A DNA stretch of 64,000 nucleotides from a virus (Duplodnaviria; Caudoviricetes): IMG/VR virus record IMGVR_UViG_3300021124_000001; one strand, written 5' to 3'. The first letter of the stretch is position 1. Every line of letters starts with the position of its first letter. The notes under the pieces were generated by a model that saw nothing but the letters and a program-made list of their open reading frames with translations, was not told the origin of the DNA and made no database searches. The position numbers and the translations under genes were made by a program. Below, piece after piece: positions 16,064 through 57,715 of the stretch.

Positions 16064-16501
16064 ATGAAATATGTATATATTACGGCCGAGTTTAATAAAA
16101 AAATGTGTGAGATTTTTGAAGTTGATTATACGCCGACAGATACAACAAGATTTTTACTAAACAAAACCGAATCCATAATGCCTGTTAACATTGGTATTGA
16201 TATTGGTGTATTTGGTAAAGACCCATGGAACAAAGGTAAAAATACTGGACCATTATCAGAATCACACAGAAAATCATTATCATTGGCGGCAAAAAATTAT
16301 AAGAGAACACCAGAGCATCAAGAAAATAATAGAATCGCAAGGTCAGATTCTTGGTCAGTAACTAATCCAAAAGGTGAAACATTTACTATAAAAAGTATGA
16401 ATCATTTTTGTAAATGTAATCAATTAAATGCAGGACATATGACCTTGGTATCTCAAGGTAAAAGAAAACAACATAAAGGATGGACTTGTTCCAAAATATA
16501 A
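16064..16501 (+). CDS. Homing-endonuclease-like DNA-binding protein (NUMOD3 plus C-terminal HTH-like), no nuclease motif
   Basis: PWNKGK, SESHRK.LS, GKRKQHKGW; conserved hairpin leader at 15995-16063. Confidence 0.8.
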   Translation: MKYVYITAEFNKKMCEIFEVDYTPTDTTRFLLNKTESIMPVNIGIDIGVFGKDPWNKGKNTGPLSESHRKSLSLAAKNYKRTPEHQENNRIARSDSWSVTNPKGETFTIKSMNHFCKCNQLNAGHMTLVSQGKRKQHKGWTCSKI

Positions 16502-16698
16502 TGAACGAACGAATTAAAGAACTTGCTAAACAAGCAACTGTTCATGGCGATACTGAGCATCACCTGGACATACCGTTATGGTACTTGGAGCAGTTCGCCA
16601 AGTTGATTGTGAAAGAATGTACCAATATTGTGTTACACTATACTGATGTTGATGAAGGTGTAGCAGTGGCCAAGAAACATTTCGGAGTTGAAGAATGA
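16501..16698 (+). CDS. MNERI/KFAELIV/HFGVEE family member
   Basis: All three constant blocks present. Confidence 0.8.
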   Translation: MNERIKELAKQATVHGDTEHHLDIPLWYLEQFAKLIVKECTNIVLHYTDVDEGVAVAKKHFGVEE

Positions 16699-16988
16699 AA
16701 ACATCAGATATTAAAAAAGGTATGCGTGTCCGTCTTGCCAATGGTTGGTACGGTACTATGATGGATAATATGCGAGGTACTACCCGGCTTGTAGAGGTAG
16801 AAGGCCATTACACTGAAACCGGGTCGGTATATTCACATGATATTATTGTGGCTCAAACACCTACAGGCTGGGAAGCCGTTGTGCATACTGCAAAAGAATT
16901 GCAGTGCAAAGAAATGAATGAAGCGTTTTTTGGTGGTGGTGAAGAAGACCTACCATTTAAAAATGGTCTAGAATATATGTCAAACTAA
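16695..16988 (+). CDS. Hypothetical protein
   Basis: ATGA-coupled to the HFGVEE junction. Confidence 0.7.
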   Translation: MKTSDIKKGMRVRLANGWYGTMMDNMRGTTRLVEVEGHYTETGSVYSHDIIVAQTPTGWEAVVHTAKELQCKEMNEAFFGGGEEDLPFKNGLEYMSN

Positions 16989-17010
16989 GTATTGAATAAA
17001 GGAATATATT

Positions 17011-17553
17011 ATGCCAAACTGGTGCTCTAATGTTGTGGTTATCTCTCACGTTGAACCATCCAAACTGGATGTTATTCGTGATGCTGTTAAGGTAGCGGCC
17101 GAAGCCTCTACTGGTGAACATTTTTTCAATACTCTGGTGCCACGACCAGTAAATGAAGAAGAAAATTGGTATGAATGGAACGTGACCAATTGGGGTTGTA
17201 AATGGGATGTAGAGCCACAAATTACCGAAGATACTGGTGATTCTATTACTTTGACCTTTGATACCGCATGGGCACCACCAATTCAATTCTATAATGAGAT
17301 GGTCGAGCGTGATTATGAGGTTCGGGCATTCTATGATGAATCTGGTATGGCATTCGCTGGCATTTATGATAATGGCAATGACGATGATTATGAATATGGC
17401 AGTATGGACTCCAGTGAGATTGTAGATAATCTACCTCAAGAATTGGATGAAATGTTTGCTATCTCTGAGCAAAAGGCCGATTGGGAATCTGAAAACGAAG
17501 AACCTGATGTGGATGAAGCACAGGAATGGAACGATTTTGATCCAGAGTGTTGA
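17011..17553 (+). CDS. Api92/YubB-like ferredoxin-fold protein
   Basis: MPNWC.N, NWGCKWD, FDTAWAPP. Confidence 0.8.
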   Translation: MPNWCSNVVVISHVEPSKLDVIRDAVKVAAEASTGEHFFNTLVPRPVNEEENWYEWNVTNWGCKWDVEPQITEDTGDSITLTFDTAWAPPIQFYNEMVERDYEVRAFYDESGMAFAGIYDNGNDDDYEYGSMDSSEIVDNLPQELDEMFAISEQKADWESENEEPDVDEAQEWNDFDPEC

Positions 17554-17563
17554 AAGGAAATAA

Positions 17564-18142
17564 ATGTTTGTCTTTGATGTTGAAACACTTGGTAAGGAAT
17601 CTAGTGCAGTGATATTATCCATGGCGGCCGTATACTTTGACCCGAGGGAAAAACCATCACCAAAAGATATGCGAGACACCGCATTTTTTGCCAAATTCAA
17701 TGTCAATGACCAAATTGCAAGGCTTGGTCGCACCATGACCAGGTCATCCATATCATGGTGGGGTAAACAATGTGACATTGTAAAAAACAAATCATTTAAA
17801 CCAAGCGCCGATGATATTATCATTGATGATGGTGTAGAAGCCATGAGACAATGGTCAAAACAATTTCCAATGCACGACAAATGTTGGGTGTGGGCACGTG
17901 GCAACCTCGACCAATTGGTGCTTGATTCGATTGAAGAAAAACTAGGCATTGAACCTGTGTTTTTCTTTAATCGTTGGCGTGATGTGCGTACCGCATTGGA
18001 CCTATTGAATGGGTCTGTGACTGGTTATGTGGATGTGGATTATCCTGGTTTCAATCCTGCACATCATATACAAAAACATGACCCAATTGATGATTGCATT
18101 TTTGACGCCATGCAGTTACTATACGGAAAGAATGTAGAATGA
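17564..18142 (+). CDS. dexA: 3'-5' exonuclease (DEDDh, T4 DexA-like)
   Basis: FDVETLG, WARG..D, RDVRT, HDPIDDC..D. Confidence 0.85.
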   Translation: MFVFDVETLGKESSAVILSMAAVYFDPREKPSPKDMRDTAFFAKFNVNDQIARLGRTMTRSSISWWGKQCDIVKNKSFKPSADDIIIDDGVEAMRQWSKQFPMHDKCWVWARGNLDQLVLDSIEEKLGIEPVFFFNRWRDVRTALDLLNGSVTGYVDVDYPGFNPAHHIQKHDPIDDCIFDAMQLLYGKNVE

Positions 18143-18360
18143 ACGAACGAATTGAACAAATTATTGAACAGGCATATTGCGATTTACATAAACAGGATCC
18201 AAATAGATTTTTTGGTGAAAGAACTATTGCTAAAAAAGTAGCCGAGTTGATTGTCCAAGATTGTGCCAATTTTGTGCGTGAAACATATGACCACGAGGCG
18301 GCAGAATCTATCGCATGGACAATGGAGATTAATTATGGTTTACACGGAGATTATGCATGA
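18139..18360 (+). CDS. MNERI/KFAELIV family member (diverged)
   Basis: MNERIEQ, KVAELIVQDC. Confidence 0.75.
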   Translation: MNERIEQIIEQAYCDLHKQDPNRFFGERTIAKKVAELIVQDCANFVRETYDHEAAESIAWTMEINYGLHGDYA

Positions 18361-18519
18361 AAACAATTTTTGATAAAGAGTATGATTCGGAATCATTGTG
18401 TGATTTGAGCCGAGATGTCCATGAGGCATTCAACAATGATTTTAATCCAACAGTAGCCGACATACCAAAAGACGAGTATGGCTTCCATGAAGGCCGGTTC
18501 ATTGTCACAATAAAATGGG

Positions 18520-18581
18520 TGTTGTAAATTAACAACAAGCATACCAAAAGTCCTTGACGGACCGTCCAGATGTGCTATAAT
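18520..18581 (+). promoter_or_regulatory. Palindromic box plus sigma70-type promoter
   Basis: Box 18520-18537, TTGACG 18554-18559, TATAAT 18576-18581. Confidence 0.85.
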
Positions 18582-18609
18582 TGCCACTTATTCGATTGAT
18601 TAGGACACT

Positions 18610-18858
18610 ATGAGAACCAAGCAAATTGTTCAAGGGCTTAAAAATAGCCAGCGTATACGTGCCATTGTGAATGGTGTTGGATTTTATACAACCGTACAAG
18701 ATGCCCTGGCTGGTCCATTTACTACGCAAACCTCGGCAGTTAATGTTGTATTGCATGAGATTGGTTCAAATAAATTAACTGGTTTTGGTCGAACCGTTAA
18801 AGTTTATAATAGCTATATGGAAGCTGTTAATTTCAACATTCAAATTGATTTGGTTTAA
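18610..18858 (+). CDS. Hypothetical protein
   Basis: AGGA SD following the promoter. Confidence 0.7.
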   Translation: MRTKQIVQGLKNSQRIRAIVNGVGFYTTVQDALAGPFTTQTSAVNVVLHEIGSNKLTGFGRTVKVYNSYMEAVNFNIQIDLV

Positions 18859-18868
18859 GGAGATAATC

Positions 18869-19321
18869 ATGGGTTTAGATATGTACTTGTCGGCACGTAA
18901 ATATGTTTCTGATTTTGGTTTTAAACCAGAAGATACTAAACTAAATGCATCGATTAAAGAATCATTGGGTTTTGGTCCTAATGAATTTGGCCACATTTAT
19001 GTTGAATTAGAAGTGGCATATTGGCGTAAAGCAAACCAGATTCACGCATGGTTTGTGAATAATGTCCAAGATGGTGAAGACGATTGTGGAAATTATTATG
19101 TTTCCCGCGAACAAATTAGTGAATTGGTTAATCTGTGTTCGGAAGCCATTGATAATAAAGACTCCGAATTATTGGAACCAAAAAGTGGTTTCTTTTTTGG
19201 TTCGACCGATGTGGATGAATACTACTGGGACGAATTGAAACGCACCAAAATCGTCCTCAATCAAATTTTGAATGACAAACGACTGGAAGATTGTTCCTTC
19301 CAATATCATGCGTCCTGGTAA
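18869..19321 (+). CDS. Conserved phage protein (MGLDMYL...YWRKANQIH.WF)
   Basis: Recognisable motif family; AAGGAG SD. Confidence 0.8.
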   Translation: MGLDMYLSARKYVSDFGFKPEDTKLNASIKESLGFGPNEFGHIYVELEVAYWRKANQIHAWFVNNVQDGEDDCGNYYVSREQISELVNLCSEAIDNKDSELLEPKSGFFFGSTDVDEYYWDELKRTKIVLNQILNDKRLEDCSFQYHASW

Positions 19322-19416
19322 TGTTGCATAATAATGATTATAATATAAATAGGTGTGTATCGCGTCCTGGCAGGGACCATACACTCTAGCCATCGAAACA
19401 ATAATCAAGGACTATT

Positions 19417-19827
19417 ATGACCAGCACTAATATGTATATACCCCAGTCGGAATGGGATGCAATGTCCCAAGCATTATCTACCATATTCGATGTAGATTAT
19501 GTACCAAGTAACACCGAACCTTATATTGTAACCCCATTATATTCTAATAATTCTGGACATTTCAATCTAGGCATAAAAAGAACGGCCGAACAAAAAAAAG
19601 CTCAAAGTACTAGACAAATAGGAATGAGATATTCCCATTTACGCAATGAAAAAATTGGATTTGCAAATTCTAAAAATTGGTTAATCACTGATCCTATCGG
19701 TATCACATATAGAGTTTTTAATTTAAGGCAATTTTGTCGAGAAAAAAACTTAAATCAATCTAGTATGACTATGGTAGCCAAAGGCAAATTTAAACAACAC
19801 AAGGGTTGGACCTGTCAGAAAATTTGA
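19417..19827 (+). CDS. Homing-endonuclease-like DNA-binding protein, no nuclease motif
   Basis: NUMOD3-like repeats, NLRQFCRE..L, KGK.KQHKGW; leader at 19344-19416. Confidence 0.8.
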   Translation: MTSTNMYIPQSEWDAMSQALSTIFDVDYVPSNTEPYIVTPLYSNNSGHFNLGIKRTAEQKKAQSTRQIGMRYSHLRNEKIGFANSKNWLITDPIGITYRVFNLRQFCREKNLNQSSMTMVAKGKFKQHKGWTCQKI

Positions 19828-19828
19828 T

Positions 19829-19890
19829 TGTTGTTTTTAAGCAACACCGTCCCGGATTGTCCTTGACTTAGGTGCCGGCCGTGTTACAAT
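19829..19890 (+). promoter_or_regulatory. Palindromic box plus sigma70-type promoter
   Basis: Box 19829-19846, TTGACT 19863-19868, TACAAT 19885-19890. Confidence 0.85.
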
Positions 19891-19922
19891 GGACTCTTAC
19901 TTTGATTGATGAAGGAATTTAA

Positions 19923-20786
19923 ATGTCTGGTATTTTTATGGTTGACGGTAAGTATGCGGCTAATATCAACGGCAAGATTGTAAAACGTGCTAATCGCCGT
20001 GCATTGGAGCGTATGTTAAAAGTAACTGATGCCGTTGTTGCACCCACTGAGTCCAAATTCTCTATTAACCAGCGTTTTGGTTTCGTCCGTGATATGGTTC
20101 AAATGCTTGCAAAAGGCGACCAAGCGTCCGTGGTTGTATCGGGACCTGGTGGTCTCGGTAAGTCACACACCGTATCAGCCGCTTTGACCGATGCCGGCTT
20201 CACTGATCTGTCCGTGCTTGACGAATTGGCTGATGGTGCCGTTGTGCCTGATAAATCTTTCCGTGTTGTTAAAGGTTATTCTACACCAAAAGGTTTATAT
20301 CGTGTTTTGTTTGAGAATCGTAATTCGGTTGTTGTATTTGATGACTGTGATTCGGTGCTCAAAGATCCAGTATCTCTTAACCTATTGAAAGCGGCTCTAG
20401 ATTCATATTCTCGCCGTATTATCTCTTGGCGTGCCGATACTCGTGATGAAGAATTGCCTAATGTGTTTGAATTTAAAGGCCGTGTTGTCTTTATCTCTAA
20501 CCTGTCGTCATCTTCATTGGATCAAGCCATTATCTCACGTTCACTAGCCGTTGACTTGTCTATGACTGCCAAACAAAAGGTTGAACGTATGCGATTCCTG
20601 CTTGACCAAAAAGACTTTATGCCTGAGTATGACAAACAACACAAGGTCGATGCAATGGACCTTATTGCTGAGTTATGCGATAATGTGAAAGAGTTGTCTT
20701 TGCGTACACTGATTCAGGTAACAAAGATTCGTAAATCTGCCGGTGCAAACTGGAAAGATTTGGCTGAATATGCTATTGTTGGTTGA
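19923..20786 (+). CDS. AAA+ ATPase
   Basis: Walker A GPGGLGKS, Walker B VVFDDCD, FISN, AIISR. Confidence 0.88.
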   Translation: MSGIFMVDGKYAANINGKIVKRANRRALERMLKVTDAVVAPTESKFSINQRFGFVRDMVQMLAKGDQASVVVSGPGGLGKSHTVSAALTDAGFTDLSVLDELADGAVVPDKSFRVVKGYSTPKGLYRVLFENRNSVVVFDDCDSVLKDPVSLNLLKAALDSYSRRIISWRADTRDEELPNVFEFKGRVVFISNLSSSSLDQAIISRSLAVDLSMTAKQKVERMRFLLDQKDFMPEYDKQHKVDAMDLIAELCDNVKELSLRTLIQVTKIRKSAGANWKDLAEYAIVG

Positions 20787-21279
20787 TTTTTTAAAGGATT
20801 TATTATGTTTGAACAAACTGTAATGCAAAAAATTGGACATTTATTGAAAGAAGGCGAAACTGCTGAATTTCATAATGGTACATTGTTTCTCAATTCAGGC
20901 CGACCAACGGCCAATGATGTTTATATTGAATTGTGTAACATTTATCGTAAACGATTTATAAATTTCAATATTGTTACTGAAGGTGAATATGCGTTTGACT
21001 TTACTGCGTGAGACTACAAAGTGGGCCGATGGTTCGGCCACCAACTTCATATATGCCTTTGTGGATAAACCGGGTAAACGGTTAGGTAATGCTGTTGGTT
21101 ATATCAATCACCTATCTGATGAGTATAAGGAATTTAGTAAGCCAATGGTGATTGATATGAAGGATAGGACCTTTGTAGAGGTAGGTAATATCAAATTTGA
21201 ATTGGATACACCTATTCATTGAAAGCGGCACACCGCTATCTTATACACCATTTTTAAAATTGTCAAGGTAACTTTTGGT

Positions 21280-24200
21280 ATGAATGAAAAAATTCAAAAA
21301 CTAATGGGTAAGGCTCTAGATAGCGAAATGCGGCGAACCTGGGATACCATGACTTACGGAGACCTATTACAGTTTAGTGAAAAGTTCGCCGAGTTGATTG
21401 TTCGGGAATGTATGTATGTAGGTCGCTTATCTCAGATTAACAACGGCCTTGTTGATTCAGATATCAAAGACCATTTTTACGGAGTTGAAGATGAACGAGA
21501 CTGAAATTAAATTACTAATCGTCGGCACCATTATGCTTGGAGCAGGCATGATGTGGTTGGGCAATATCTTAGGGAGATTAGCATGAGCAAAAGAATGAGA
21601 GAACTTGCCGAACAGGCTGGATTTCAATACATTAAAGATGAAGGCATTGGCTGGGCTGGAAATTACAATGACAGTTTACCCAAGTTCGCCGAGTTGATTG
21701 TTCGGGAATGTATCGGATGTTGTGAACAAGTTATTAGTGATCCTGTTCCTAACTATATTGACACTTGGTTAAATGGTGGTTCGCAATGTATTGACGAAAT
21801 TAAACAACATTTCGGAGTTGAACGATGAAAGTCATTATTGAAAAACCGGATGGATCACCATATCTCACAGTAAGTGATGATAGACTAATGGTGTCTGTTC
21901 AAATGCACGATTGTGTGTGGATAGGTGAGCCAGTAAAGATTCACTTTGACCGCAGAACCATACCAGCACTGATTGATGCGTTAAGCAGATTGAATCGTGG
22001 CGAACTTGACACAACCATTCGCACACACCACTTTAACCAGGATATAGAATGAAAAAGATACCAATGTTAGAACGGTTCGCCGCACAAAGTCTTGTTGAAC
22101 ACGATGGTGAGTTGATATTCAGCAAAGAAAAGTTCGCCGAGTTGATTGTGCGTGATACATTAGACCAAGTTGCTGAATTTAGTCGTCTAACAAAGGCATA
22201 TCAAACACAAGGCATTGATCCCGAGATTGATGTTACCCGAGAAGTTTTGAAAAACTATGGGTTTACAAGATTTCCCAGGAGTTGAAGAATGAACGAACGA
22301 ATTCGAGAACTTGCCGAACAGTCCAGAGAAAAGAAATATGATTACGGTGCTAGAGAAGGTGAAAGTCATTACATTTATGTATTCAATGAAGAAAAGTTCG
22401 CCGAGTTGATTGTCAAGGAATGTCAAACTCGTGTAGAACAATATATCTGTGATTGCGGCGAGATTGGTTCATTGCCTGATGCTGTGATTATGAAACATTT
22501 CGGAGTTGAAGAATGATTGATTACTTCCAAGCACTTAAAGAAATGCACCAGGGCAATGTGGTCAAATATGTGGGCACAGTAAATGGTAATGTGATGAGCG
22601 ATAATGGTGCCAGTTTTTGTATGTGTCGTGGTTGTATCTTTCGATTCGACGATGGAGTAATCAAGTGGAACAAGTTGGGATATATGGTTTACGATCCAGA
22701 CTACCGTTATGAACTAACAGGTGAAACTGTGGATCCAAGGGCATGGAAACCAGAAGAGACAAAAAAGCAAAAGGATAAAGAATGAAAGACGATGATGTAA
22801 GAAAAGAGATTAGGCGTATAATGGAAAATCGTAAACACTATTCAAACACAAATAACCCTATTGATTTTCCAAAAATACAGGCAGGCGCTGATATCCATGC
22901 AGGTGATGGTGGTTATAGTATAGGCACACAAGAAAAGTATGAGGAGTTCGCTAAGGCTCGCAATAAGTCATTAGCCAACGCAAGAATTAGAGAACTTGCT
23001 GAACAGGCTGGATCAACCCATAAACAAAATCTCGGAGTATATCAATTTTATACAGATGAATTGGAAAAGTTCGCCGAGTTGATTGTTCAGGAATGTATCG
23101 AGGTCGTGGGAGACTGTTCCGATCAATTTGCTACACGGTCGCAGATTACTGAAGAAATTAAAGAACATTTCGGAGTTGAAGAATGAAATCATATAATGCA
23201 GTAAACGATTTACACATGGCCATGGCTCACGCTATTTACGAGGGCTTTCCTGAATATGAATACGAAAGCCGTGATTTCAACAACCCGGATAGAAATGCCC
23301 GAGTGGTTAAAAAAACACGCCACACCGAATACAATCTAACAGTCAAGGCCATGTTTCCTCAAGTCTGGAGTTCAACTGCGCTGGGCTTTGGTGGCATTGG
23401 TGGACAGGCTATTACTACCGCATATACCACGGTGGTAGAAAGCGACATTGACTCAAGTTGTTGTGTGTATTTTGGTGGACAATTTGCTTACCGTATTGAA
23501 CGACCTAATACTCAATTCTTTGAGGACCTGTCCAAACAACAAATGACCAAGGTGTCGGAAGCAAAGAAAAGATATGAACGAACGAATTGAAAAACTTGTC
23601 GAACAGGCTACTATTAAAACTTCTCATCGGTATATTACTTGGGGAAATACGGTTGCTACTCAGTCCGAAGAAGTCTTTGACAAGGAAAAGTTCGCCGAGT
23701 TGATTGTTCGGGAATGTGCTAAAATTTGTATTGAACAGAATGTATCCAACCTTGATTTAGATGTTATTCGTGAGTCTGGCAAATTTACTTTACAGGATCT
23801 TGCTACCAAATCGTGTGGTGAGAATTTGTCTAAACAGATTAGGAAACATTTCGGAGTTGAAGAATGAACTATTTTATTGTTGGGCTGGTCATTGGACTTA
23901 TTCCAGGTATGTGTGTAGCGGCTAATTATCATTACAAAAAATGGAGAAATTCTAAATGAACGAACTAATCAATAACTTAAGGCTTGATGCTGGAATAGCA
24001 CAACTCAAAGATGATCCACGATTAGTGGTAATTGATCGTGAAGGCAATGTGATTGATCCATTGATTGGGTTAGAAAAGTTCGCTGAGTTGCTTGTTCGAG
24101 AATGTGCTAATATTGCCACGATAAATCAATATCAATCCTACACTCCTGGTCATTATATTTTGAATCATTTCGGAGTTGAAGAATGAACGAAGACGAACGA

Positions 24201-24918: not shown

Positions 24919-24922
24919 GCCC

Positions 24923-24951
24923 TTGACAAATGCCACAAAGTGGTATACAAT
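24923..24951 (+). promoter_or_regulatory. Sigma70-type promoter
   Basis: TTGACA-N17-TACAAT. Confidence 0.7.
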
Positions 24952-32925: not shown

Positions 32926-33188
32926 TGCTTTCTATCTTTCACTATTGGTCGGCCAAAGAACGATTGGCTGAACACGAAAAGACCATCATGATGCTTGGTG
33001 GTGAATCTGAATGCCAACCAATGATTCTTGCACAGCGGGATTTCATAAAAATGGAATTGGAATACTATCGCAAACCAGCAAAAATTTGGTCGATAATTTT
33101 ATGCGTACTTCCAGTTATTTTTATTTTTCTTGCACCATTTGGATATGGTGTAATAAGTAACATTGTGATGAATTGCTGCATCAAGTAA
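32925..33188 (+). CDS. Hypothetical membrane protein overlapping the endonuclease 3' end
   Basis: TAATG coupling; C-terminal hydrophobic stretch. Confidence 0.55.
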
Positions 33189-33695
33189 ACTTCCAAAAAT
33201 AATGCCATTCGGATCAATAACACCTTTTGCATTTGGATTTTTTGATGCCGTCAATCCATAACAAGGATTATTTACACCAGAAGTCCTAATCGATTGTAAG
33301 AGTTTTCTTTGAGTATTATTTTCCCAGTGTGATTTTACAATTTTTTTAAGTTTAATTCTCACATCATTTCTACGGCATGGATTTTTGTCACCATATAATT
33401 TATTTTTTTCGGCAACAACAATACCAGTTCCGCCATCACCCCCATCAGTACGATTTCTAAGTATACCAGTTTTTTTATCTTTTCTTCCCCACCAGCGGAT
33501 ATATCTGCGTTCAAGAGCAAAAGCACCAATTTCGGTAAGATTACCTTCCATAATAACGATTTTGGATTTATCTTTTGGTGGATGTATTACATCATTTTTT
33601 GTGTGTTTCCATGCTCTATCTTCTTTACCTTTACCAATGTAATAAGGTGAACCGTTTTTACGGAGATAGGCATAGATGTAATAAATACTTGACAT
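33099..33695 (-). mobile_element. Free-standing GIY-YIG homing endonuclease
   Basis: [29 protein letters not shown]; leader and late promoter at 33696-33772. Confidence 0.88.
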
Positions 33696-33790
33696 GTGCT
33701 GTGTCCTTATGTTAGAATTTGACATAGAGTAGGTGGGAATTCCCAGTTCCGTGACCTACACCCTTATTTATATCATTTGAAAGGTAAATT

Positions 33791-47536: not shown

Positions 47537-47546
47537 AGGAAGATAC

Positions 47547-48318: not shown

Positions 48319-48542
48319 TGCCTACTAAAGATGAAATCCGTGAGTTCTCTTTGAAGATTGAGGAGATTGCCGATCTGTATAATGTTCATTGTATGGAAGC
48401 AATCGTCCAGTATTGTGAAGAATCGGGTATCGAGGTAGAAGTTGCCGCAACCTTGATTTCTTCACACCTCAAAGCACGTATCAAAGAAGAAGCTCAATCT
48501 GTTAATCTGATTAAAAAGTCGAGCCGGTTACCTATTGTATGA
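48318..48542 (+). CDS. 33: Late transcription co-activator gp33
   Basis: FS..IE, EAIV.YCEE..IE.E, LK..I..EA...N, RLPI; synteny with 59 and 32. Confidence 0.88.
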
Positions 48543-49215
48543 TATAATATTCATCCGGTTTTCTTTTTAATTTGGAAGAAATATTGGACTTTGTACAATT
48601 CATAAATTCGGCCGCTGTTGTTACTGATTCAAATAATCCAAAAGGTGTCATTATTCTTTTTCTCTTTTTCGGTATAGGTTTGCCTTTTTTCGAATTTGAT
48701 AAATTCTGTTTATGGTGTTCTGAAAAAATCATCCCTTTTCTACCGTTTGAAATATTAGTTTTATGTTCCGAACTTTTTGGTCCTAACATTTTTTTGATAG
48801 AGTTCTCCGTGTGTTTAAAACCTAAATTGAAACCTTTCATTCCCTTATTCCACGGAGATTTGTTATAGTGGATACTATTCATACCTGAAATTTTATTTAA
48901 GGTTTCTTGTGTATGTTTATAATTCTCTACACCATCACCTCCATCGGTTTTATTTCTTAATATTCCTGTGCCTATGTCAATTCTACCATACCATCTTATC
49001 ATTCGGCGTTCCAAAGCTAGTGCTCCAACTTCAGTTAAATTGCATTCAACAATTATGACTCGTGATTTATCTTTTGGTGGCTTAATTTCTTTTTTAGATT
49101 TTAACCAAGCTCGTGTTTTTTGACCTTTTCCAAAATAATATGGTGTATTATCTGGACGTAGATATGCATAAACATAAGATCCGGGTGGTGTGTTGGTTTT
49201 GGAATAAATATCCAT
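48532..49215 (-). mobile_element. Free-standing GIY-YIG homing endonuclease with NUMOD3
   Basis: [24 protein letters not shown]; leader at 49216-49281. Confidence 0.88.
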
Positions 49216-49287
49216 GCTGACATTCCTTTACAATGTTAGAGTGGGTGCAAGCGGGAACTTGGCGACCCACACTTATTTATAATAGAT

Positions 49288-49893
49288 ATGACAGAAAATA
49301 CTGGTTTCGAAGCGTACAAACTTTATTCTGCAATGAAGTTGCACTTCACCTCTAAATCCTATGATTATTTCCGATATAACGGAAAAACTAATGTGTCACA
49401 GGATAACTTTTTAAAGAACAAAGCAAAATACCAATTCTACAAATTGTCCCGTAAGTATTCACTGGACGAATTGCGTAACTTTTATTTGGCCAACTTCATT
49501 TACGGTGATTCGACTTGGGTTGGTGAAATGACCGGACCAGAAGGTGAAGTTGCATATAAAAAGTGGCAAAAAACCAACCAGAGCTTGACCTATGTGTTTG
49601 AGAATGATATACTCGGTCTCATAGGAAATGATTCACCAGAACAGATGTTGATTGTCAAAGATGGTCAACATCCAATTCTTCTCCGTGAAGTGATGTCTGG
49701 TACAATCTCAATTGAAACGATGGTTATACTGAATGATATAATGAATTTCTTTCCCATGTGGAATAGAAAGATAAGTGATGATATTATTTGGCCCAATTGG
49801 CGCCTAAAAAGTGAAAAGTATACACCATTCGTTACCTATGATAAGGTAAAATTTAAAAACATTTTGAAAGAAGTGGTTACAGAACATGCATAA
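49288..49893 (+). CDS. 59: Helicase loader gp59
   Basis: YKLY.A.KLHF...YDYF.Y.GK, IS.ET. Confidence 0.9.
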   Translation: MTENTGFEAYKLYSAMKLHFTSKSYDYFRYNGKTNVSQDNFLKNKAKYQFYKLSRKYSLDELRNFYLANFIYGDSTWVGEMTGPEGEVAYKKWQKTNQSLTYVFENDILGLIGNDSPEQMLIVKDGQHPILLREVMSGTISIETMVILNDIMNFFPMWNRKISDDIIWPNWRLKSEKYTPFVTYDKVKFKNILKEVVTEHA

Positions 49894-50380
49894 GTTTAAG
49901 AAAATCTATTTGGACCTTGATGGTGTGATTGCCGACTTTGCAAAACGTTATAAAGAATTGCATAAGATTAGTCCAGAAGATGCAGACAAAAAGAAACAGT
50001 TTGGTAAATTCTTTGCTGAATTCATCAAGTCTGGCCAGTTTGCTACACTGGATATGATGCCAGACGCCAAGCAATTACTATCCTATCTCAACACCACAGG
50101 TGTTCCAGTAGAGATTCTTTCTTCTACTGCACGACAAGACAACCATGTAGCAATTTCTCGCCAAAAGACTATTTGGCTTGATCGGCATGGTATCAATTAT
50201 CCAGCTAACTTTGTACCAGGTAAAGCACTGAAATACAAGTTTGCTGATCCAGAATCCATTATCATTGATGACACTCAATCCGTTATCGATGATTGGAGAA
50301 AAGCAGGTGGAGTGGCAATTCATCACACAGATGCATTGACAACCATCGCCATGTTAAGTACACTCCTAGGGCGTACCTAA
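49886..50380 (+). CDS. HAD-family 5'(3')-deoxyribonucleotidase
   Basis: DLDGVIADF, ILSS, K..WL, IIDD. Confidence 0.88.
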   Translation: MHKFKKIYLDLDGVIADFAKRYKELHKISPEDADKKKQFGKFFAEFIKSGQFATLDMMPDAKQLLSYLNTTGVPVEILSSTARQDNHVAISRQKTIWLDRHGINYPANFVPGKALKYKFADPESIIIDDTQSVIDDWRKAGGVAIHHTDALTTIAMLSTLLGRT

Positions 50381-50451
50381 ATATGGATATATTATGTACA
50401 ATGTGGATAATCCGTTAATATTTTTTAATACTCCGTTTATAAAGGAAAATC

Positions 50452-51345
50452 ATGAGTTCATTTGCAAATCTTAAACGCCAATCTGGCAACCTCGACAAAC
50501 TATCTAAAGCCATTGAGCAACTCAATGCATCCTCAGCAGGTACTGACAGTAAAGAAAATTACTGGCGCCCTGAGGTAGATAAAGCAGGTAACGGTTCAGC
50601 CGTCATCCGTTTTCTCCCAACACCAGCAGTCGATGGTGATGACTCTCTCCCATGGGCAAAAGTATTCTCTCACGGCTTCCAAGGTCCTGGTGGCTGGCTG
50701 ATTGATAACTGCCTGACAACCAAGAACGAACAATGTCCTGTATGTGAACACAACAACAAATTGTGGAACTCTGGCATTGAGGCCAACAAGGAAATCGTTC
50801 GTAAGCAAAAGCGTAAACTGAACTACATTGCAAACGTGTATATCGTTTCTGATCCTAAGCATCCAGAGAATGAAGGACAAGTTAAATTGTTCAAGTTCGG
50901 TGCAAAGATTTTTGAGAAGATCACTGGTGCTATGAATCCAGCTTTTGAAGATGAAGTTGCAATCAACCCATTCGACTTGTGGACTGGTGCAAACTTCAAA
51001 CTGCGTATCACTAAGGTCGCAGGCTACCAGAACTATGACAAGTCTGAATTTGCATCACCATCGGCTTTGTCCGATGATGAAGACAAGTTGGAAAAGATTT
51101 GGAAGTCTGAATTGTCGTTGAAAGACTTGACAGCAGACAAAGAATTCAAGTCTTATGATGACCTGAAAGGTCGCCTTGAAAAGGTTCTCGGTCTGAATGG
51201 TGACACACCAGTTGCCAAGACTACTGTTGAAACCATCAAAGAACAGGCTCGTAAAGCACCTAAAGTAGATGCTGAAGATACTGGTTTTGTTGACCCAACA
51301 GAAGATGATGATTTGGCCTACTTCTCTAAGTTAGCAGAAGATTAA
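50452..51345 (+). CDS. 32: ssDNA-binding protein gp32
   Basis: DKAGNG.AVIRFLP, H.FQ, NC.TT...CPVC, NYDKS.F, acidic tail. Confidence 0.96.
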   Translation: MSSFANLKRQSGNLDKLSKAIEQLNASSAGTDSKENYWRPEVDKAGNGSAVIRFLPTPAVDGDDSLPWAKVFSHGFQGPGGWLIDNCLTTKNEQCPVCEHNNKLWNSGIEANKEIVRKQKRKLNYIANVYIVSDPKHPENEGQVKLFKFGAKIFEKITGAMNPAFEDEVAINPFDLWTGANFKLRITKVAGYQNYDKSEFASPSALSDDEDKLEKIWKSELSLKDLTADKEFKSYDDLKGRLEKVLGLNGDTPVAKTTVETIKEQARKAPKVDAEDTGFVDPTEDDDLAYFSKLAED

Positions 51346-51369
51346 ACCCTCTCGAATTCGATAGGTTAA

Positions 51370-51394
51370 GAACCCGCCTAGTGCGGGTTTTTTA
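51370..51394 (+). terminator. Rho-independent terminator between convergent genes
   Basis: AACCCGC-ctagt-GCGGGTT-TTTT. Confidence 0.85.
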
Positions 51395-52867
51395 TGTCTG
51401 TCTGGTCAGACTCTTAAAAATGTTCTTCAGTGTCGGATCATCCGTACGAACTGTTACGGAACTGTCCATACTGATCGCAGGAGCAGAAGAACCACCAGAT
51501 GCATTCACAGTCTTAGAATTATCAATCGTGACGATTTTGGCTGTATCCTGGTCAAGATTCATACTAATATTTTGACTGATTGCCGACTGCACACGAGTTC
51601 CTGTAGATGCTGGTGCTGGAGGCATCGGTGCGGCTGTAGTTGGGATAGAATATTGTTCAGCCGACATGGTACCTCGACCGGCACCAGCAGTTGATGGCGT
51701 AACACCGACAGGTAAAGGTGTTGCTTTTGTTGCAGTAACCGTGGGCATGTTACCAGAATTGTATAAGTCTGAAGCCTCGTTCAATAATTCTGGTGGAGGT
51801 TGATTACCTTTACTATCCGCAAATATAAATCTTCCATTTTTCTCCTCACCCTTTTTGGTGTAACCTTTGGAATTCAAGTATTTTTCAATCGCTGATTGTT
51901 TTTTTCTAATCGCAGACTTTAATTTTTCCTGCTTCTGTTCATATTCAGGATCAGAAGAACCTGGCATTTCTGATAGTTGATCTCGATTTTCGGAGTTCTG
52001 TATAGATTCAGTAATTGCTCTGGCTTCTGGTCCACCAAGTTCTTCACTCGAATCTTGTGCGGCACCCATTGCCTTGCCAACGCCAAATTTTATAGCTTCG
52101 GCAATCAATACACCTAATGCTACACCTCCAGCAAGTCTTTGTATGAATGGATTAGCTAACAAACTTTTAAGTAAACCAAAAGCCGCAAGTACACCCTCAC
52201 CAAAAATTTCTTTTATTTTTCCAAAGAAGTCTAATACAGGTTTAAAAAAATCTTTAACTTTTGCTATAGAACCTTCAATAAAATCCATTATATCATCTAA
52301 AAATCCACCCTTTTTGACTGGTGTTGCTGTCGTAGTTTTACTACCAACTCCAGTAAGTGCTTTAATCAATTCAGAATGCCATTTTTCACGTTGCTTCTCT
52401 CTATCAACATTCAAATTCTTATCAATTTCACTTTGTATCTTTAGTTCTTCTGAGTTTGTCTTAATCAAATTATAAATGCGAGCCATCACATCAGCAAGCC
52501 CGTCATTCTTCTTCATACTTCTTTTATCACCCTCAGGTATTTTTGTAACTAGAGGGTTCACCTTCATACTTTCTAGGGCACTAGAACGAACTCTTGCACC
52601 AGTGAAGTATGCAATATCTTCTTCTCTACGGCCAGTCATTTTACCAACAGCATAAGCACCTAGTCTTCCACCAAACATCTTGCCGATGTTCAATGGATCA
52701 AACTTTTCTTTCATACGTGTGAATTTTGCTGTAGTCTTATCTGAGATAGCAGACTTAATAGAACGACCAACGCCTTGACCAGACACGATTCTGTCAACCA
52801 TTAATCTGCCAAGGCCTACATTTTTCAGCCTTTGTGCACGTTGATATGTCATTTTATCGTTTGCCAT
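51392..52867 (-). CDS. Baseplate hub/tape-measure-like protein (gp29-like)
   Basis: Helical and hydrophobic middle region; position after gp26/gp51. Confidence 0.6.
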   Translation of the reverse strand: MANDKMTYQRAQRLKNVGLGRLMVDRIVSGQGVGRSIKSAISDKTTAKFTRMKEKFDPLNIGKMFGGRLGAYAVGKMTGRREEDIAYFTGARVRSSALESMKVNPLVTKIPEGDKRSMKKNDGLADVMARIYNLIKTNSEELKIQSEIDKNLNVDREKQREKWHSELIKALTGVGSKTTTATPVKKGGFLDDIMDFIEGSIAKVKDFFKPVLDFFGKIKEIFGEGVLAAFGLLKSLLANPFIQRLAGGVALGVLIAEAIKFGVGKAMGAAQDSSEELGGPEARAITESIQNSENRDQLSEMPGSSDPEYEQKQEKLKSAIRKKQSAIEKYLNSKGYTKKGEEKNGRFIFADSKGNQPPPELLNEASDLYNSGNMPTVTATKATPLPVGVTPSTAGAGRGTMSAEQYSIPTTAAPMPPAPASTGTRVQSAISQNISMNLDQDTAKIVTIDNSKTVNASGGSSAPAISMDSSVTVRTDDPTLKNIFKSLTRQT

Positions 52868-52868
52868 T

Positions 52869-54293
52869 TTATCCGCCTATGATTGCTGGTCTCTCTGAAG
52901 GTGTTGGTGTTCTAATTGTTTGTGGTGATGAACCACCTGAAGATATGACTGTTGTTTTTGTATTATCTATTGCAACGTTGGTGCCTTTAGTGGATGATTT
53001 TAAATCTTTATTCTCATTGGAAGATTTAATAAGATTTTCACCGGAATCTATTTTAACATTTGGTGATGATAGGAGTTTAGATTCTTTTTTACCTGATCCA
53101 TAACCCTCTCTCTTTTGCATAGCATCTAATATTAATGTTCGCTGTTGTTCATTAAAATCACGCATTCTCATAGTCTTCAATTTTTCTTCAGGAAGACCAA
53201 CAGCATCTCTGACAGCTTTCTGATAAGCAGGAGTATCATTAGCTTTTTCTTTTGCAGGTGCATATCTAGCGATTGCATCATCAATATTTAAATCTCTATA
53301 ATTTTTACCTTCAAAAATCAACTTAGCTTTGGCCGCACGACCAGCTTCATATGTTGGAAAAATTGCAAATCTTTCTTCAGGTGTTTGTGGTTTATTTTTT
53401 CCATGAGCGTACGGAATTGCACCATTCGATAAAGCAAAATCGCCATATTCGATGTTACCTGGATTATTATTTCTCCAGTTCCAAACACCTTCTTTTTTGA
53501 CTATTTCACCAGATTGCAATTCAACTATGTTGTAGCCCTTACCAACTTCAACTATTCTTTTTATTGCTGTTGCGGCCGCGGCACCAATAGCAACACCTGT
53601 AGCTACTTTAGCGGCTGTAGAAACGCCACCAGTAGAAACTGGAGGTTTTGTTGGACTAGCAGACACTGGTTTAGGTGCCGGTGCTTCCACCGGTTTTGCA
53701 GTTGCCGGTTTAGCTGTTGGTGTTTCTGTTGTTGCTGACTTTTGTGCAGGAGCTTCAGCTTTTTTAGCCTCAGGCTCCTTCTTCATGAACCTACCCTTCT
53801 CATCTCTAGGCGGTAATTCTTTTTTAGGCTTTTGAGCCTTTACACCCTTTTTGGCATTCTCGATGGTGGCAATCAGTTCTTCTTGTCTTCTTTGTTCTTC
53901 TTCGAATAGTTCTTGTTCTTTATTTTTATCCAATTCAGAACGCAACTTACGATCTTCTATATCTTGCTTCATTACAGCATAGATTTTTGCACCGATGTTG
54001 GCCGCACTGTCACCTGTTCGTAGTTTAGGCTTGCTAACGGTGACAGCATCAACGTAAAAGTTGGCGTTTACATTACCAACTTTGTTGGCCATATTTGATT
54101 GTGGTGATACTTGCTTAGCCGTTTTCTTACGCTTTGACAAACCTTTTACTATATCTTCCACATTCATTGCAGTTTGTTTCACAATCATATCAACAATTTG
54201 CTTGTCAATAGCGGCTCGTTGGGCTTCCAATTCTTTACTATTTTGGCCTTTCAACTCACCGATTACTGATTCTAATTGTGACTTGTTGTTCAT
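52869..54293 (-). CDS. Tape-measure/hub-like protein with lysozyme-like domain
   Basis: Coiled coil, P/A/T linker, WRNNNPGNI..F.T.EAG..YAP..NDT.AY. Confidence 0.7.
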   Translation of the reverse strand: MNNKSQLESVIGELKGQNSKELEAQRAAIDKQIVDMIVKQTAMNVEDIVKGLSKRKKTAKQVSPQSNMANKVGNVNANFYVDAVTVSKPKLRTGDSAANIGAKIYAVMKQDIEDRKLRSELDKNKEQELFEEEQRRQEELIATIENAKKGVKAQKPKKELPPRDEKGRFMKKEPEAKKAEAPAQKSATTETPTAKPATAKPVEAPAPKPVSASPTKPPVSTGGVSTAAKVATGVAIGAAAATAIKRIVEVGKGYNIVELQSGEIVKKEGVWNWRNNNPGNIEYGDFALSNGAIPYAHGKNKPQTPEERFAIFPTYEAGRAAKAKLIFEGKNYRDLNIDDAIARYAPAKEKANDTPAYQKAVRDAVGLPEEKLKTMRMRDFNEQQRTLILDAMQKREGYGSGKKESKLLSSPNVKIDSGENLIKSSNENKDLKSSTKGTNVAIDNTKTTVISSGGSSPQTIRTPTPSERPAIIGG

Positions 54294-54375
54294 CTACGTT
54301 TTTTTCTTATAAATAATTGTGTATCGCCAGACTCTCACCTCCGCATACACTCTAACACGAAAGAACCGTATCAGC

Positions 54376-54978
54376 ATGACTATTTATCATATAATATATA
54401 AAACTATCCACAAAAACGGAAACTACTATTATGGTCGCCATTCCACCGATAACTTAAATGATGGATATTTGGGTTCTGGTAAATGGGTGAAAAGCATAAA
54501 AAATAAAAAAGAACTTACCCGAGAAATAGTGGAATATGCGGATTCCATAGAGAAATTAAAACACTTAGAGGAAAAATACCTAGATGAACACTACGGTAAA
54601 CCAAATTGTATGAATTGGTCTAAAGGATCACACGGTTTCAAAAAAGGTGATCCTGCAACCAAGCAAATACCTAGAAGGGTGCAGTTGAAGTTGGTAAAAG
54701 AAGGTAAACACCACCTATTAAGTGGTGACGTACAGAGACAACAGTGGAAAAAATATAAAGAATTGGGAATAAATCCTATAACAAATATTCAAAATGTTAC
54801 CGAAAGAGCAAATAGACTAATCAAAGAAGGTAAACACAATTTTCAAAACACATCAAGTCGTGAAAAAGTGGTTTTACATCAAAAAACTGAAAGAGTGTGT
54901 CCACATTGTGGTAAAAATGGAAAAGGCTCAATCATGTTTAGACACCATTTTGAAAAATGCAAATTCAAATCATCTTGA
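54376..54978 (+). mobile_element. Free-standing GIY-YIG (Seg-like) homing endonuclease with C-terminal Zn finger
   Basis: IIYKT..YYYGRHST..DGYLGSG; CPHCG...HF.KC; leader at 54308-54375. Confidence 0.88.
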
Positions 54979-55161
54979 ATTTTGTCGCTCTTTAATCTTG
55001 GCATTTTCTTCTTCAATATATTGAGCAAGCATACTAACGTAAATTTCACGCTCCCATGGCATCATATTTTCTAGCTCCGTCAAACTATACTTGTGATGCT
55101 GAATCAATGCAAAGTTGGTTGTATAATAGTTCCTTAATGTATCATGACGGAAGATTACCCG
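54970..55161 (-). CDS. 51: gp51-like frame, probably reached by -1 frameshift from gp26
   Basis: HDTLRNYYTTNFALIQHHKYSLTELENMMPWEREIY; no ATG or SD before the conserved part; T TTT TTC at 55167-55161. Confidence 0.8.
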   Translation of the reverse strand, partial: RVIFRHDTLRNYYTTNFALIQHHKYSLTELENMMPWEREIYVSMLAQYIEEENAKIKERQNSR

Positions 55162-55877
55162 AAAAAATTTTCGAGACCCTCCACCTCAATCGTATGGTGG
55201 AAACCACACTTACCACAGTCCATCTCAATTGTTTTATTTAATTTAGGTAAATTGTCAAAAAATTCTTCAATCTTACTAAATTGCTCAGTGTTCAATGATT
55301 CTACAAACTCAATTAATTCTTCTCTTGCAACCTCATTCGCATAATAGAATTGTTCACCATCATAAATGTTAACGATACTACTGATAATCATTTCAAACGC
55401 CATATCGGTTGCAGTCTCAATATTCTTTGATGCATCCAACACAGAAAACTTTGGATAGGCCAACTTGATACTGATTCTGTCTGTTAGTTGAATCTCATCT
55501 TTAATATCATTGTGGTCAACTTTAATATCTAACAAATTAAACTTAACATCCATCATATTGCCACAAGCCTTATCGTCTACGATATTCTCACAGCGATATT
55601 TGTTTTCAACAACTTCACCGACCGATCTCGCTCTTAACTGGATGAAATAGTATTCAACGTCCACAATAGGAAGAGAATCAATGTCAACATTCTCTGTCAA
55701 GGTACAGTTATGTAAAACTTGTTTGATGTTCTTTTCCATAGTCTCTTTATCGTCAGATTCCATGGCCATCATTAGGTTACGTTGCTCTTTCACCAGAAAA
55801 GGTCTAAAGCGAATATGCTTCTTAGACAGCGGTAAAGTCAATTCATAGATCGGCGCATCAATTTTTGGTAAAGCCAT
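55155..55877 (-). CDS. 26: Baseplate hub assembly chaperone gp26
   Basis: MALPKI..P.YELTLP, RPFLVKE, LRARSVGE, C.KC....EGL.NFF. Confidence 0.9.
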   Translation of the reverse strand: MALPKIDAPIYELTLPLSKKHIRFRPFLVKEQRNLMMAMESDDKETMEKNIKQVLHNCTLTENVDIDSLPIVDVEYYFIQLRARSVGEVVENKYRCENIVDDKACGNMMDVKFNLLDIKVDHNDIKDEIQLTDRISIKLAYPKFSVLDASKNIETATDMAFEMIISSIVNIYDGEQFYYANEVAREELIEFVESLNTEQFSKIEEFFDNLPKLNKTIEMDCGKCGFHHTIEVEGLENFFG

Positions 55878-55896
55878 TATATCTCCTTCAAATCAA

Positions 55897-56568
55897 TTAG
55901 TAATAAGACTCAAGTTTTGGTCCTTCTTGCAATATTACATTCTTCTCGTTAACAATGTTATTATCTGTAAATCCGGTTAGGCCGCCAGTTGAATTAAGAA
56001 CTTGTGTAATTCCATACTGTAGTGCACTGTCACCAAATTTCTGTATAGAGTTGTTTTGCCAGTATCTGTAAGCGAAGACAACAGTTAATTTGTGGTGTCC
56101 ATCATTAGACCAATCCAAGTCCAATTGGTTGACTGAAACTGGAAACGCATCGATCAGGTTGATGGAGTATGTTAATTTGTTATCAACACCATACTGATTG
56201 ACTGTCAAGGTAGAGATGTAATCATTTCTATAGTTGAAATCAAAAGACATTGTTGGGTTGATGTATTCCATCCATGCATCAAAGAAAATCTTCTCAGACA
56301 TATCATCCGAAACAATGAATGTCATCTCAGACTCATTGTAGTTCGATTGGTAAGCATGTTTTTCGATTGGGTTTGAACCGATTTTCTGGTCTGCTGTTGC
56401 AAAGGTTCTGCTAGGTAACTGAGCAGACTCACAGCGTAATGTCAAATTTCTACTTGTTGACAAATAGTACAACATTGGCAGCGGAGCAGGAATAGTAACA
56501 TCAAACCTATTTGGTCTTGCAATATCGGTCTTAAACGAACCAAGAAAATCTGTAATACTTGATGGCAT
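55897..56568 (-). CDS. Tail-tube-like/baseplate tube initiator (gp54/gp19-like)
   Basis: ARPNRF.V, C.SAQLP, FD.W, DAFP, V.FAYRYW. Confidence 0.8.
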   Translation of the reverse strand: MPSSITDFLGSFKTDIARPNRFDVTIPAPLPMLYYLSTSRNLTLRCESAQLPSRTFATADQKIGSNPIEKHAYQSNYNESEMTFIVSDDMSEKIFFDAWMEYINPTMSFDFNYRNDYISTLTVNQYGVDNKLTYSINLIDAFPVSVNQLDLDWSNDGHHKLTVVFAYRYWQNNSIQKFGDSALQYGITQVLNSTGGLTGFTDNNIVNEKNVILQEGPKLESYY

Positions 56569-56570
56569 TT

Positions 56571-57194
56571 TTATTCTTCTGAGTTAAAGTGTTTCATGTG
56601 ATCTTTCCACTCCAATACCGAATCTCTCCACACTTTTTGTGGTTTTGCACCTCTAAATTGCTGTATTGGTAACATTGTTGCCACATCCCACTCATTCGGT
56701 TGGATTGTCAACATTCTGGAACGAACATGATTAAACAGGTATCGTTTCAGACAAGGCCTAAACTCCGCATACTTCTTGGATGCTTCCAGGATGTCGTAGG
56801 ATATTCTCATACGTCTAATGTCGTTCTCTGCTGTCAACTGTGCATATTTCATCAGTTTGGACAAGAACGCAATACGGAACTTGACTGGTAAATAGTGCAG
56901 ATTCAGACCCATGAAACCATCATTATATCTTTCCAAAATCAAAACCATTGGGAATCTATCCCAATATGGCATGTCTGCCTTGGTTTTAGGATCATAATAG
57001 AAACAATACATCATTCCAATACGAAACTGGGATGTCTGTCTAAATGTTTCTTTATTGATTGTAGATGGTATTGTTGACGGCCTTTTGATCTCGTCAATCT
57101 TTTCCTGCAACCAAGCCACAGCATCACGAGACATAGTTTTATGTCCTGCCGCCGCTTTTTGTTCTGCTAGTGAGGTGAGTTTGGATGTGGTCAT
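56571..57194 (-). CDS. 2: DNA end protector gp2
   Basis: YDPK.K..MPYWD.FP, GLNLHYLP, KRYL..HVRS. Confidence 0.9.
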   Translation of the reverse strand: MTTSKLTSLAEQKAAAGHKTMSRDAVAWLQEKIDEIKRPSTIPSTINKETFRQTSQFRIGMMYCFYYDPKTKADMPYWDRFPMVLILERYNDGFMGLNLHYLPVKFRIAFLSKLMKYAQLTAENDIRRMRISYDILEASKKYAEFRPCLKRYLFNHVRSRMLTIQPNEWDVATMLPIQQFRGAKPQKVWRDSVLEWKDHMKHFNSEE

Positions 57195-57265
57195 TTCTTT
57201 ATAAATAAGTGTGTATCGCCGGTGGTCAGACCGCATACACCCTAACACGAAAGAACCGTATCAGT

Positions 57266-57715
57266 ATGATTATTTATAAGCTATCTCAAAAAGAATTTGA
57301 TTCTTTAAATTTATCACTTTCCAAAGCATTCGATGTCGCATACCAAGAAATGAACGTTGGTGACCAAATTTTTGAAACTTCATCAGTTCCATCCAGTAAC
57401 TGCATATTGAGAGGCGAATCTAGTCCTAGGTGGCGTAAAAAACATTCAGAAGAATCTAAGAAAAAAATGGCGGCCGCAAGATTAGGCAAAAAAGCCACCG
57501 ATGAAACAAGAAAGAAGATGAGTTTAGCTCAATTGGGTAAAAAACAAAGGCCTGAATCTATAGTAAAAATGTTGGAAACTAGAAAAGGTAAACCGGCAGG
57601 CATGAAAGGTAAAAAGAAAATAACTACAGTTTGTCCACACTGTGGTCTAATAGGTGCTAGAAGCTCACTGAAAAGGTATCATTTCGACAACTGCAAATCT
57701 TTAAGAAATTCCTAG
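57266..57715 (+). CDS. Homing-endonuclease-like NUMOD3/Zn-finger protein, no nuclease motif
   Basis: HSEESKKKM, ETRKKMS, CPHCG...RYHFDNC; leader at 57200-57265. Confidence 0.8.
   Translation: MIIYKLSQKEFDSLNLSLSKAFDVAYQEMNVGDQIFETSSVPSSNCILRGESSPRWRKKHSEESKKKMAAARLGKKATDETRKKMSLAQLGKKQRPESIVKMLETRKGKPAGMKGKKKITTVCPHCGLIGARSSLKRYHFDNCKSLRNS

Follow-up and report, generated by a model that had tools for sequence, protein, structure and literature searches.

Homing-endonuclease-like cassettes of uncultured T4-like phages that carry a conserved N-terminal module and no recognisable nuclease domain

Homing endonuclease (HE) genes are thought to pass through a cycle of invasion, fixation, decay and loss. 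Here we describe three open reading frames (ORFs), P0001, P0002 and P0003, in a 64,000-nucleotide (nt) stretch of viral DNA (IMG/VR record IMGVR_UViG_3300021124_000001; this whole stretch is called the window below), which combine the DNA-binding parts of HEs with a short conserved N-terminal segment, the N-module. They belong to a small family, found in metagenomes only, of free-standing HE gene-type cassettes in uncultured T4-like phages. Like the free-standing GIY-YIG HEs of T4-like phages (Seg; the window genes at 54376, 33695 and 49215), they are intergenic cassettes, often antisense, with a leader made of a late promoter and a hairpin, a NUMOD3/Zn-finger tail and a sporadic presence at fixed sites, and the first four codons are common with the 54376 gene. 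Unlike those HEs, the N-module cassettes carry an orphan strand-helix-strand module of ca. 40 amino acids (aa) instead of the GIY-YIG domain. P0001 and P0002 share their C-terminal domain (phrog_2081; PDB 1u3e) with HNH endonucleases of the I-HmuI/MobE type, but they have neither an HNH motif nor an HNH domain and are only 136-145 aa long.

The defunct I-TevIII of phage T4 is mobilised in trans by MobE, which is known as trans-homing (PMC2790892). Here too, an endonuclease gene that appears from its sequence to have lost its activity is still spreading; however, I-TevIII is a truncated remnant inside an intron, whereas in the present family a conserved module under selection replaces the lost domain. 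By binding an operator over the I-TevI late promoter, the DNA-binding domain of this HE acts as an autorepressor (PMC2988022). A similar action by occupancy is proposed below for the HE DNA-binding modules of the N-module cassettes, which also have a late promoter directly upstream, although I-TevI retains its nuclease and the operator here is putative. CapR of the Vibrio PLE satellite is a domesticated HE-related repressor (PMC8096241), and the N-module proteins may likewise be HE-derived DNA-binding regulators; CapR, however, is of the T5orf172 lineage, resides in a satellite and has no sequence or module in common with the N-module family. AcrVA3, a small protein with an I-HmuI-DNA-binding-like fold, was reported in one 2026 paper to degrade double-stranded DNA (dsDNA) (PMC13001698). 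This small phage protein (PDB 9kja) is similar in fold to the P0001 model, but it has no N-module or NUMOD3, it belongs to anti-CRISPR biology, and its reported DNA degradation is not sequence-specific.

The N-module and the DNA-binding tails

A sequence-only reading of the window had picked out ORFs at 16064, 19417 and 57266 as having HE-type DNA-binding tails without a GIY-YIG or HNH motif, and searches of Pfam and PHROGs led to the same view of all three:

16064-16501, plus strand: P0001, 145 aa; N-module at about residues 1-53 (16064-16222), then a PWNKGK/NUMOD3-like stretch and an I-HmuI-like C-terminal domain
19417-19827, plus strand: P0002, 136 aa; N-module at about residues 1-40, then an I-HmuI-like C-terminal domain
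57266-57715, plus strand: P0003, 149 aa; N-module at residues 1-40 (57266-57385), then three NUMOD3 motifs and a CPHC...H..C Zn finger

The N-termini of P0002 and P0003 were aligned by BLASTP (E = 6e-6 over 30 residues), and P0001 and P0002 are homologous over their full length (E = 3e-20). No pairwise alignment was obtained between P0001 and P0003, which are linked only via the family profile; with this proviso, the similar segment that the sequence-only reading had seen at the start of all three proteins is real. A hidden Markov model (HMM) of the three N-termini matched only these ORFs among the 1363 six-frame ORFs of the window. Exhaustive and word-based searches, together with fetched loci, gave a family of ca. 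20 distinct proteins, all of them metagenomic; a metagenome scan contributed three of these members and no form fused to a nuclease. When the N-modules were compared with 50,697 GenBank phage records by tblastn, no match was obtained at E ≤ 1; a word-index search with full-length P0002 returned only P0002 itself, and a pattern scan of IMG/VR with the three-sequence alignment revealed no further member. The family shows three architectures, namely the N-module with NUMOD3 and an I-HmuI-like domain, the N-module with two NUMOD3 motifs only (123-134 aa), and the N-module with three NUMOD3 motifs and a Zn finger. The segment is, as had been supposed, a module common to different DNA-binding tails, and no nuclease domain was found in any of the ca. 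20 members.

In the core of the N-module, a short strand leads through a T/S-Q turn into a helix (x-E-F/W-D-x-h-x-x-x-L-S/C-x-h-F), which is followed by a second strand (D-V-D-Y-h-P). In the AlphaFold model of P0003, which was built on a 17-sequence alignment, these elements are predicted at residues 2-6 (strand), 8-22 (helix) and 34-38 (strand), with predicted local distance difference test (pLDDT) values of 82/92/91/75 and of 82-92 in the module; the P0001 model has the same strand-helix-strand elements at pLDDT 60-79. Only M1 and one Tyr are invariant, with F and V nearly so, and the residues at the acidic positions of F-D-V-D-Y differ among members (D/E/N/G and D/E/N/A). Intrinsic cleavage is unlikely because the N-module has no conserved pattern of catalytic residues. 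The ratio of non-synonymous to synonymous substitution rates (dN/dS) of the N-module was 0.13-0.28 in five of six pairs and 0.60 in the other (40 codons), and it was far under 1 also for the rest of the protein. The N-module is conserved among the family members and is under purifying selection, and the conservation on which the sequence-only reading depended was thus found.

The fold has no close counterpart among the structures searched. The best hit of the N-module profile against PDB sequences had an E-value of 1.3 (hmmsearch), and the best Z-scores of the P0003 model against 48,161 chains were 2.3 for the whole model and 2.2 for residues 1-40 (VIA-align). The ESM Atlas returned only NUMOD3 clusters by features, and template modelling (TM) scores below 0.5 by structure. 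Prediction of an N-module homodimer gave a score of 0.00, the module's own fold being uncertain in that complex, and this value counts neither for nor against a dimer. Two likenesses were dropped as too weak: that of M-K-x-Y...E-F to a T4 capsid-targeting sequence, since the protease-site pattern after it is not conserved, and that of I-F-D-V-D-Y to a clamp-binding peptide, since it is out of register and the phage clamp lies outside the window.

The tail of P0003 is the NUMOD3/Zn-finger DNA-binding region typical of GIY-YIG HEs. Its NUMOD3 was detected by Pfam at E = 2.8e-9, and its CPHC...H..C tail aligns with that of the GIY-YIG gene at 54376 (14 of 28 residues identical, 50%) and with the tails of known phage HEs. 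P0001 and P0002 carry the I-HmuI-like C-terminal DNA-binding domain typical of HNH HEs. Both match phrog_2081, an HNH PHROG (E = 2.7e-10 and 5.1e-12, respectively), through this region only, the match covering just positions 188-248 of the 433 of the profile, and the HNH beta-beta-alpha-metal motif was not found in either protein. The Pfam PF22083 match of the domain falls below its cut-off (E = 0.038), and the AlphaFold model of P0001 matched I-HmuI (1u3e) with a Foldseek E-value of 8.8e-5. The I-HmuI-like domain of this model (residues ca. 60-145; window 16240-16501) also resembles the anti-CRISPR protein AcrVA3 (9kja), with a TM score of 0.61 by target and 24% identity over 67 columns.

The three proteins have no recognisable nuclease domain. 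Neither GIY-YIG, HNH nor any other nuclease family was detected in P0001-P0003 by Pfam, PHROGs, profile-profile comparison or fold search, and Pfam searches of 14 N-modules at E ≤ 10 gave only scattered chance matches, none of them to GIY-YIG or HNH. Against a GIY-YIG profile that combined the Seg-like genes of the window with their relatives, the N-module reached an hhalign probability of 0.1%; its DNA did not match the GIY-YIG HMM in any of six frames, and blastn and tblastx against the three GIY-YIG genes of the window found no match outside the NUMOD3 region. The profile comparisons have low power for a module of this size (ca. 40-50 columns; effective sequence number, Neff, 2.6). The likeness to the start of a GIY-YIG domain is confined to the first strand (M-x-I-Y), and the nuclease domain itself is missing. 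A decayed GIY-YIG remnant was rejected on these four negative comparisons (hhalign, Pfam, six-frame HMM and blastn/tblastx); within the limited power of Pfam, hhalign and the six-frame HMM, no trace was seen of the GIY-YIG or HNH remnant that the sequence-only reading had itself named as what would tell against it. BLAST extensions of P0003 into the GIY-YIG and HNH domains of full-length HEs were set aside as low-identity run-ons that are not independent evidence. A nuclease supplied by the adjacent gene was also rejected, the upstream neighbours (a 178-aa ORF, a 150-aa ORF and gp2) having no nuclease match.

Leaders, insertion sites and genomic setting

The N-module genes and the intact GIY-YIG genes of the window are headed by leaders of one type:

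15995-16063, plus strand: P0001 leader; late-promoter-like CATAAATA, covarying hairpin, Shine-Dalgarno sequence GGAG
19344-19416, plus strand: P0002 leader; TATAAATA and hairpin
57200-57265, plus strand: P0003 leader; TATAAATA and hairpin, its 3' part the same, letter for letter, as in the leader of the 54376 GIY-YIG gene; abuts the likely gp2 start codon
54308-54978, plus strand: intact GIY-YIG (Seg-like) HE gene, scaffold relative of P0003; leader 54308-54375, ORF 54376-54978
33099-33772, minus strand: second intact GIY-YIG HE gene; ORF 33099-33695, leader of the same type at 33696-33772
48532-49281, minus strand: third intact GIY-YIG HE gene; ORF 48532-49215, leader of the same type at 49216-49281

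The pattern TATAAATA-N-GTGTG, with at most one mismatch, occurs at six sites in the window, each of them ahead of an HE-like gene (three N-module genes and three intact GIY-YIG genes). When the six leaders were aligned, compensatory changes were seen in 6 of the 12 pairs of the hairpin. Since the hairpin begins 2-3 nt past the promoter box, late transcripts may start inside its 5' arm. The same leader also heads N-module genes of other phages and precedes GIY-YIG genes in IMG/VR contigs. A leader common to both kinds of gene indicates that the N-module genes sit on the regulatory chassis of GIY-YIG cassettes.

The relation is closest between P0003 and the 54376 gene. The 21-nt leader sequence AACACGAAAGAACCGTATCAG occurs exactly twice in the window, at 54354 and 57244, and the DNA identity of the two gene starts runs through codon 4 (M-T/I-I-Y) and then ends. 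Nothing could be aligned between the two proteins besides the Zn-finger tail, which fits an N-terminal domain swap. The view of the sequence-only reading that P0003 looks like a domain swap, with the 54376 gene as the scaffold, is supported by the common leader, the first four codons and the tail. The cassettes are precise intergenic units of leader and ORF, and both the leader and the DNA-binding parts are of HE ancestry.

P0003 lies antisense between gp2 and gp4 (site 3); the insert fills precisely the space from the gp4 stop to the gp2 start, and the 3' end of P0003 overlaps the gp4 stop by 15 nt. Positions for both gp4 and gp2 were obtained in 76 of 80 relatives from IMG/VR, and in L018 as well. 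The two genes abut or overlap in ca. 72 of the 76, with gaps of -39 to +31 nt, and the site is filled only in the window, in L018 (P0005), in L021 (a 174-aa member) and in L022. In L029 and L030, gp2 is 92% identical to that of the window and the site is empty. P0003 is 48% identical to the L021 protein and 54% identical to P0005 of L018, while the flanks are 72-79% and 53-68% identical, respectively; the divergence of cargo and flanks at this site is decoupled. An invader-like position of P0003 had been suspected from the sequence, and the empty junction in most relatives agrees with it.

Several further observations were made at this junction. By comparison with relatives, the ATG at 57194-57192 (minus strand; M-T-T-S-K), and not the GTG at 57248, is the most likely start of gp2, and the late promoter of P0003 lies 5 nt from this likely start codon (57194) on the opposite strand. 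Besides head completion, gp4 (57701-58147, minus strand), which abuts the P0003 cassette, has weak PHROG matches to 'endonuclease'. One window ORF, probably gp4, matches Pfam Tn7_TnsA-like_N at E = 5.9e-26. In L022, the site holds a 52-aa ORF (2908-3066, minus strand) that joins the N-module (ca. 35 aa) in frame with the final ca. 17 residues of the Zn-finger tail, the DNA-binding region being deleted and the leader intact; this ORF is either a product of decay or a stand-alone N-module protein.

At site 2, upstream of the ATPase gene, the spacer of the closest relative (L101; ATPase 94% identical) measures 96 nt, and the window leader with P0002 forms an insert of ca. 505 nt; L011 and L013 also lack this cassette. 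Site 1, 3' of an ORF of ca. 180 aa, is filled in the window, L011/12, L013-15 and L183-185, and presumably in L016/17, whose contigs start with this gene. Empty sites were seen in L101, L103, L104 and L108, so that L101 lacks both P0001 and P0002. In the window, the ORF at site 1 is a 178-aa ORF (15463-15999) without a Pfam or PHROG match; it lies directly upstream of the P0001-type site, whether filled or empty, in every relative that could be examined, and it is 32-76% identical across them.

No N-module was detected in four related genomes of at least 90% completeness, in a search run with a positive control, and the leader motif was absent from two of them. Distant phages, on the other hand, carry a cassette at two of the same three sites. 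The cassettes are free-standing and sporadically present among related genomes at fixed sites, and all three are missing from the closest relatives, which answers the question of presence or absence at orthologous loci that the sequence-only reading had posed. This is the pattern of mobile, site-specific cassettes and not of vertically inherited core genes.

The source phage is uncultured and T4-like, with PHROGs calls for gp2 (DNA end protector), gp4 (head completion), a baseplate hub, tail-tube-like proteins, a ribonucleotide reductase and an exonuclease. A Pfam census of 126 window ORFs, considered for the top 25 of its 62 families, adds gp32, a late-transcription coactivator, RNase H, PhoH, Tad3 and Acb3; the last two are anti-defence homologues, of the Thoeris inhibitor (E = 9.8e-42) and the CBASS inhibitor (E = 7.4e-25), respectively. 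The window DNA had no match among GenBank phages, and identical copies of P0002 occur in metagenome contigs only, the longest carrying record having 168,917 bases. The window also contains at least two copies (16480-16698 and 18139-18360) of a small ORF that starts with M-N-E-R-I and ends with H-F-G-V-E-E, and the copies share DNA-level repeats (families D1, D2 and D4). One copy lies directly 3' of P0001; it is absent in L016, where orf97 directly follows P0039.

Weighing the explanations

We read the N-module cassettes as derivatives of GIY-YIG cassettes in which the targeting modules and the leader were kept, the nuclease was lost, and a small conserved domain was gained or retained. The N-module, with ca. 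40 residues and a predicted strand-helix-strand fold, stands in the position of the nuclease domain, followed by the HE-type DNA-binding modules. Through these modules, the proteins would bind a specific DNA site near the insertion point with no cutting of their own, and they may act by occupancy, in competition with related endonucleases or promoters or as their repressors, like the I-TevI DNA-binding domain at its operator. The N-module would be a non-catalytic surface for protein contacts, and the cassettes may persist and move as non-autonomous riders that exploit phage recombination and the cuts of intact endonucleases acting in trans, comparable to I-TevIII mobilised by MobE. We give this joint reading, i.e. 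specific binding without cutting, action by occupancy and non-autonomous riding, about an even chance of being correct. The sequence-only reading stands insofar as it saw HE-like proteins with a shared module and no nuclease. Of the four functions it had offered (recruitment, catalysis, dimerisation and a repressor), none is chosen here, and the variation at the acidic positions, with a lone invariant Tyr, speaks against catalysis.

Some points weigh against the joint reading. The DNA binding, the target site and any partner are putative, and the profile comparisons of the N-module have the low power noted above. An active endonuclease would yield the same site-specific sporadic distribution, so that the loss of cutting is read off the sequence alone. 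The dsDNA degradation reported for AcrVA3 (PMC13001698) means that a missing classical nuclease domain is no proof of inactivity. Besides, a non-catalytic module kept under purifying selection on three different tails suggests a specific function beyond occupancy.

The same N-module on three unrelated DNA-binding tails, together with its purifying selection, also favours a two-part HE, in which the N-module would serve as the docking domain for a nuclease whose gene lies elsewhere, in the phage or in its host; the N-module proteins would be targeting subunits, and one nuclease would serve several cassettes. This is further supported by the presence of three differently tailed copies within the 64-kb window, by a site-specific sporadic distribution that is typical of active homing, and by the co-occurrence of the cassettes with leader-bearing intact GIY-YIG genes, both being absent in two complete relatives. 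However, the partner is so far hypothetical, no stand-alone nuclease domain is present among the top 25 of the 62 Pfam families of the window, and we know of no precedent for a free-standing HE split in two parts, which we count against a two-part HE; we regard it as rather doubtful. That several targeting subunits which differ in tail and insertion site all dock through the N-module onto one trans-acting nuclease, by which nuclease-less cassettes could home, seems unlikely to us. It is similarly improbable that the proteins are domesticated regulators or site protectors that benefit the phage, either by repressing a promoter or by masking a site from related endonucleases or host defence. Purifying selection acts across the whole protein, P0001-type genes follow the same ca. 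180-aa gene in distant phages, and there are precedents in CapR (PMC8096241), in the I-TevI operator (PMC2988022) and in the AcrVA3 fold match of the C-terminal domain, but neither the closest relatives nor the four near-complete related genomes carry the genes, which are therefore dispensable, and an in-frame deletion has removed the entire DNA-binding part from the L022 copy.

The reduction of that copy to a 52-aa ORF and the loss of the nuclease domain would fit HE gene remnants that decay without a function of their own. Intact ORFs in ca. 20 diverged copies, dN/dS far under 1 in both the N-module and the remainder, and the recombination of the N-module onto different tails all argue against this, and we consider it very improbable. 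A new minimal DNA-cleaving domain would agree with the position of the N-module in place of a nuclease domain, with a cassette distribution resembling that of active homing, and with a confident, compact predicted fold that has no PDB match. Its core, however, has only ca. 40 residues; only a Tyr is invariant, with no conserved pattern of His, Asp, Glu, Lys or Arg and with varying acidic positions; and the predicted strand-helix-strand order differs from the strand-strand-helix of the beta-beta-alpha-metal finger. We consider cleavage by the N-module itself very unlikely.

Significance of the family

The N-module family departs from simple decay of HE genes: a mini-domain under selection occupies the place of the nuclease, it is joined to three kinds of tail, and the cassettes have the patchy, site-specific distribution of active elements. 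The N-module is predicted to be a compact orphan fold fused to programmable DNA-binding modules. How cassettes without a nuclease keep an invader-like distribution is a testable question that the family raises. If they spread without a nuclease of their own, whether by trans-homing or by a shared nuclease, they would represent a new layer of parasitism among the mobile elements of phages. Alternatively, if the proteins serve their phages, the family may mark a recurrent route by which phage endonucleases are turned into DNA-binding regulators or site protectors.

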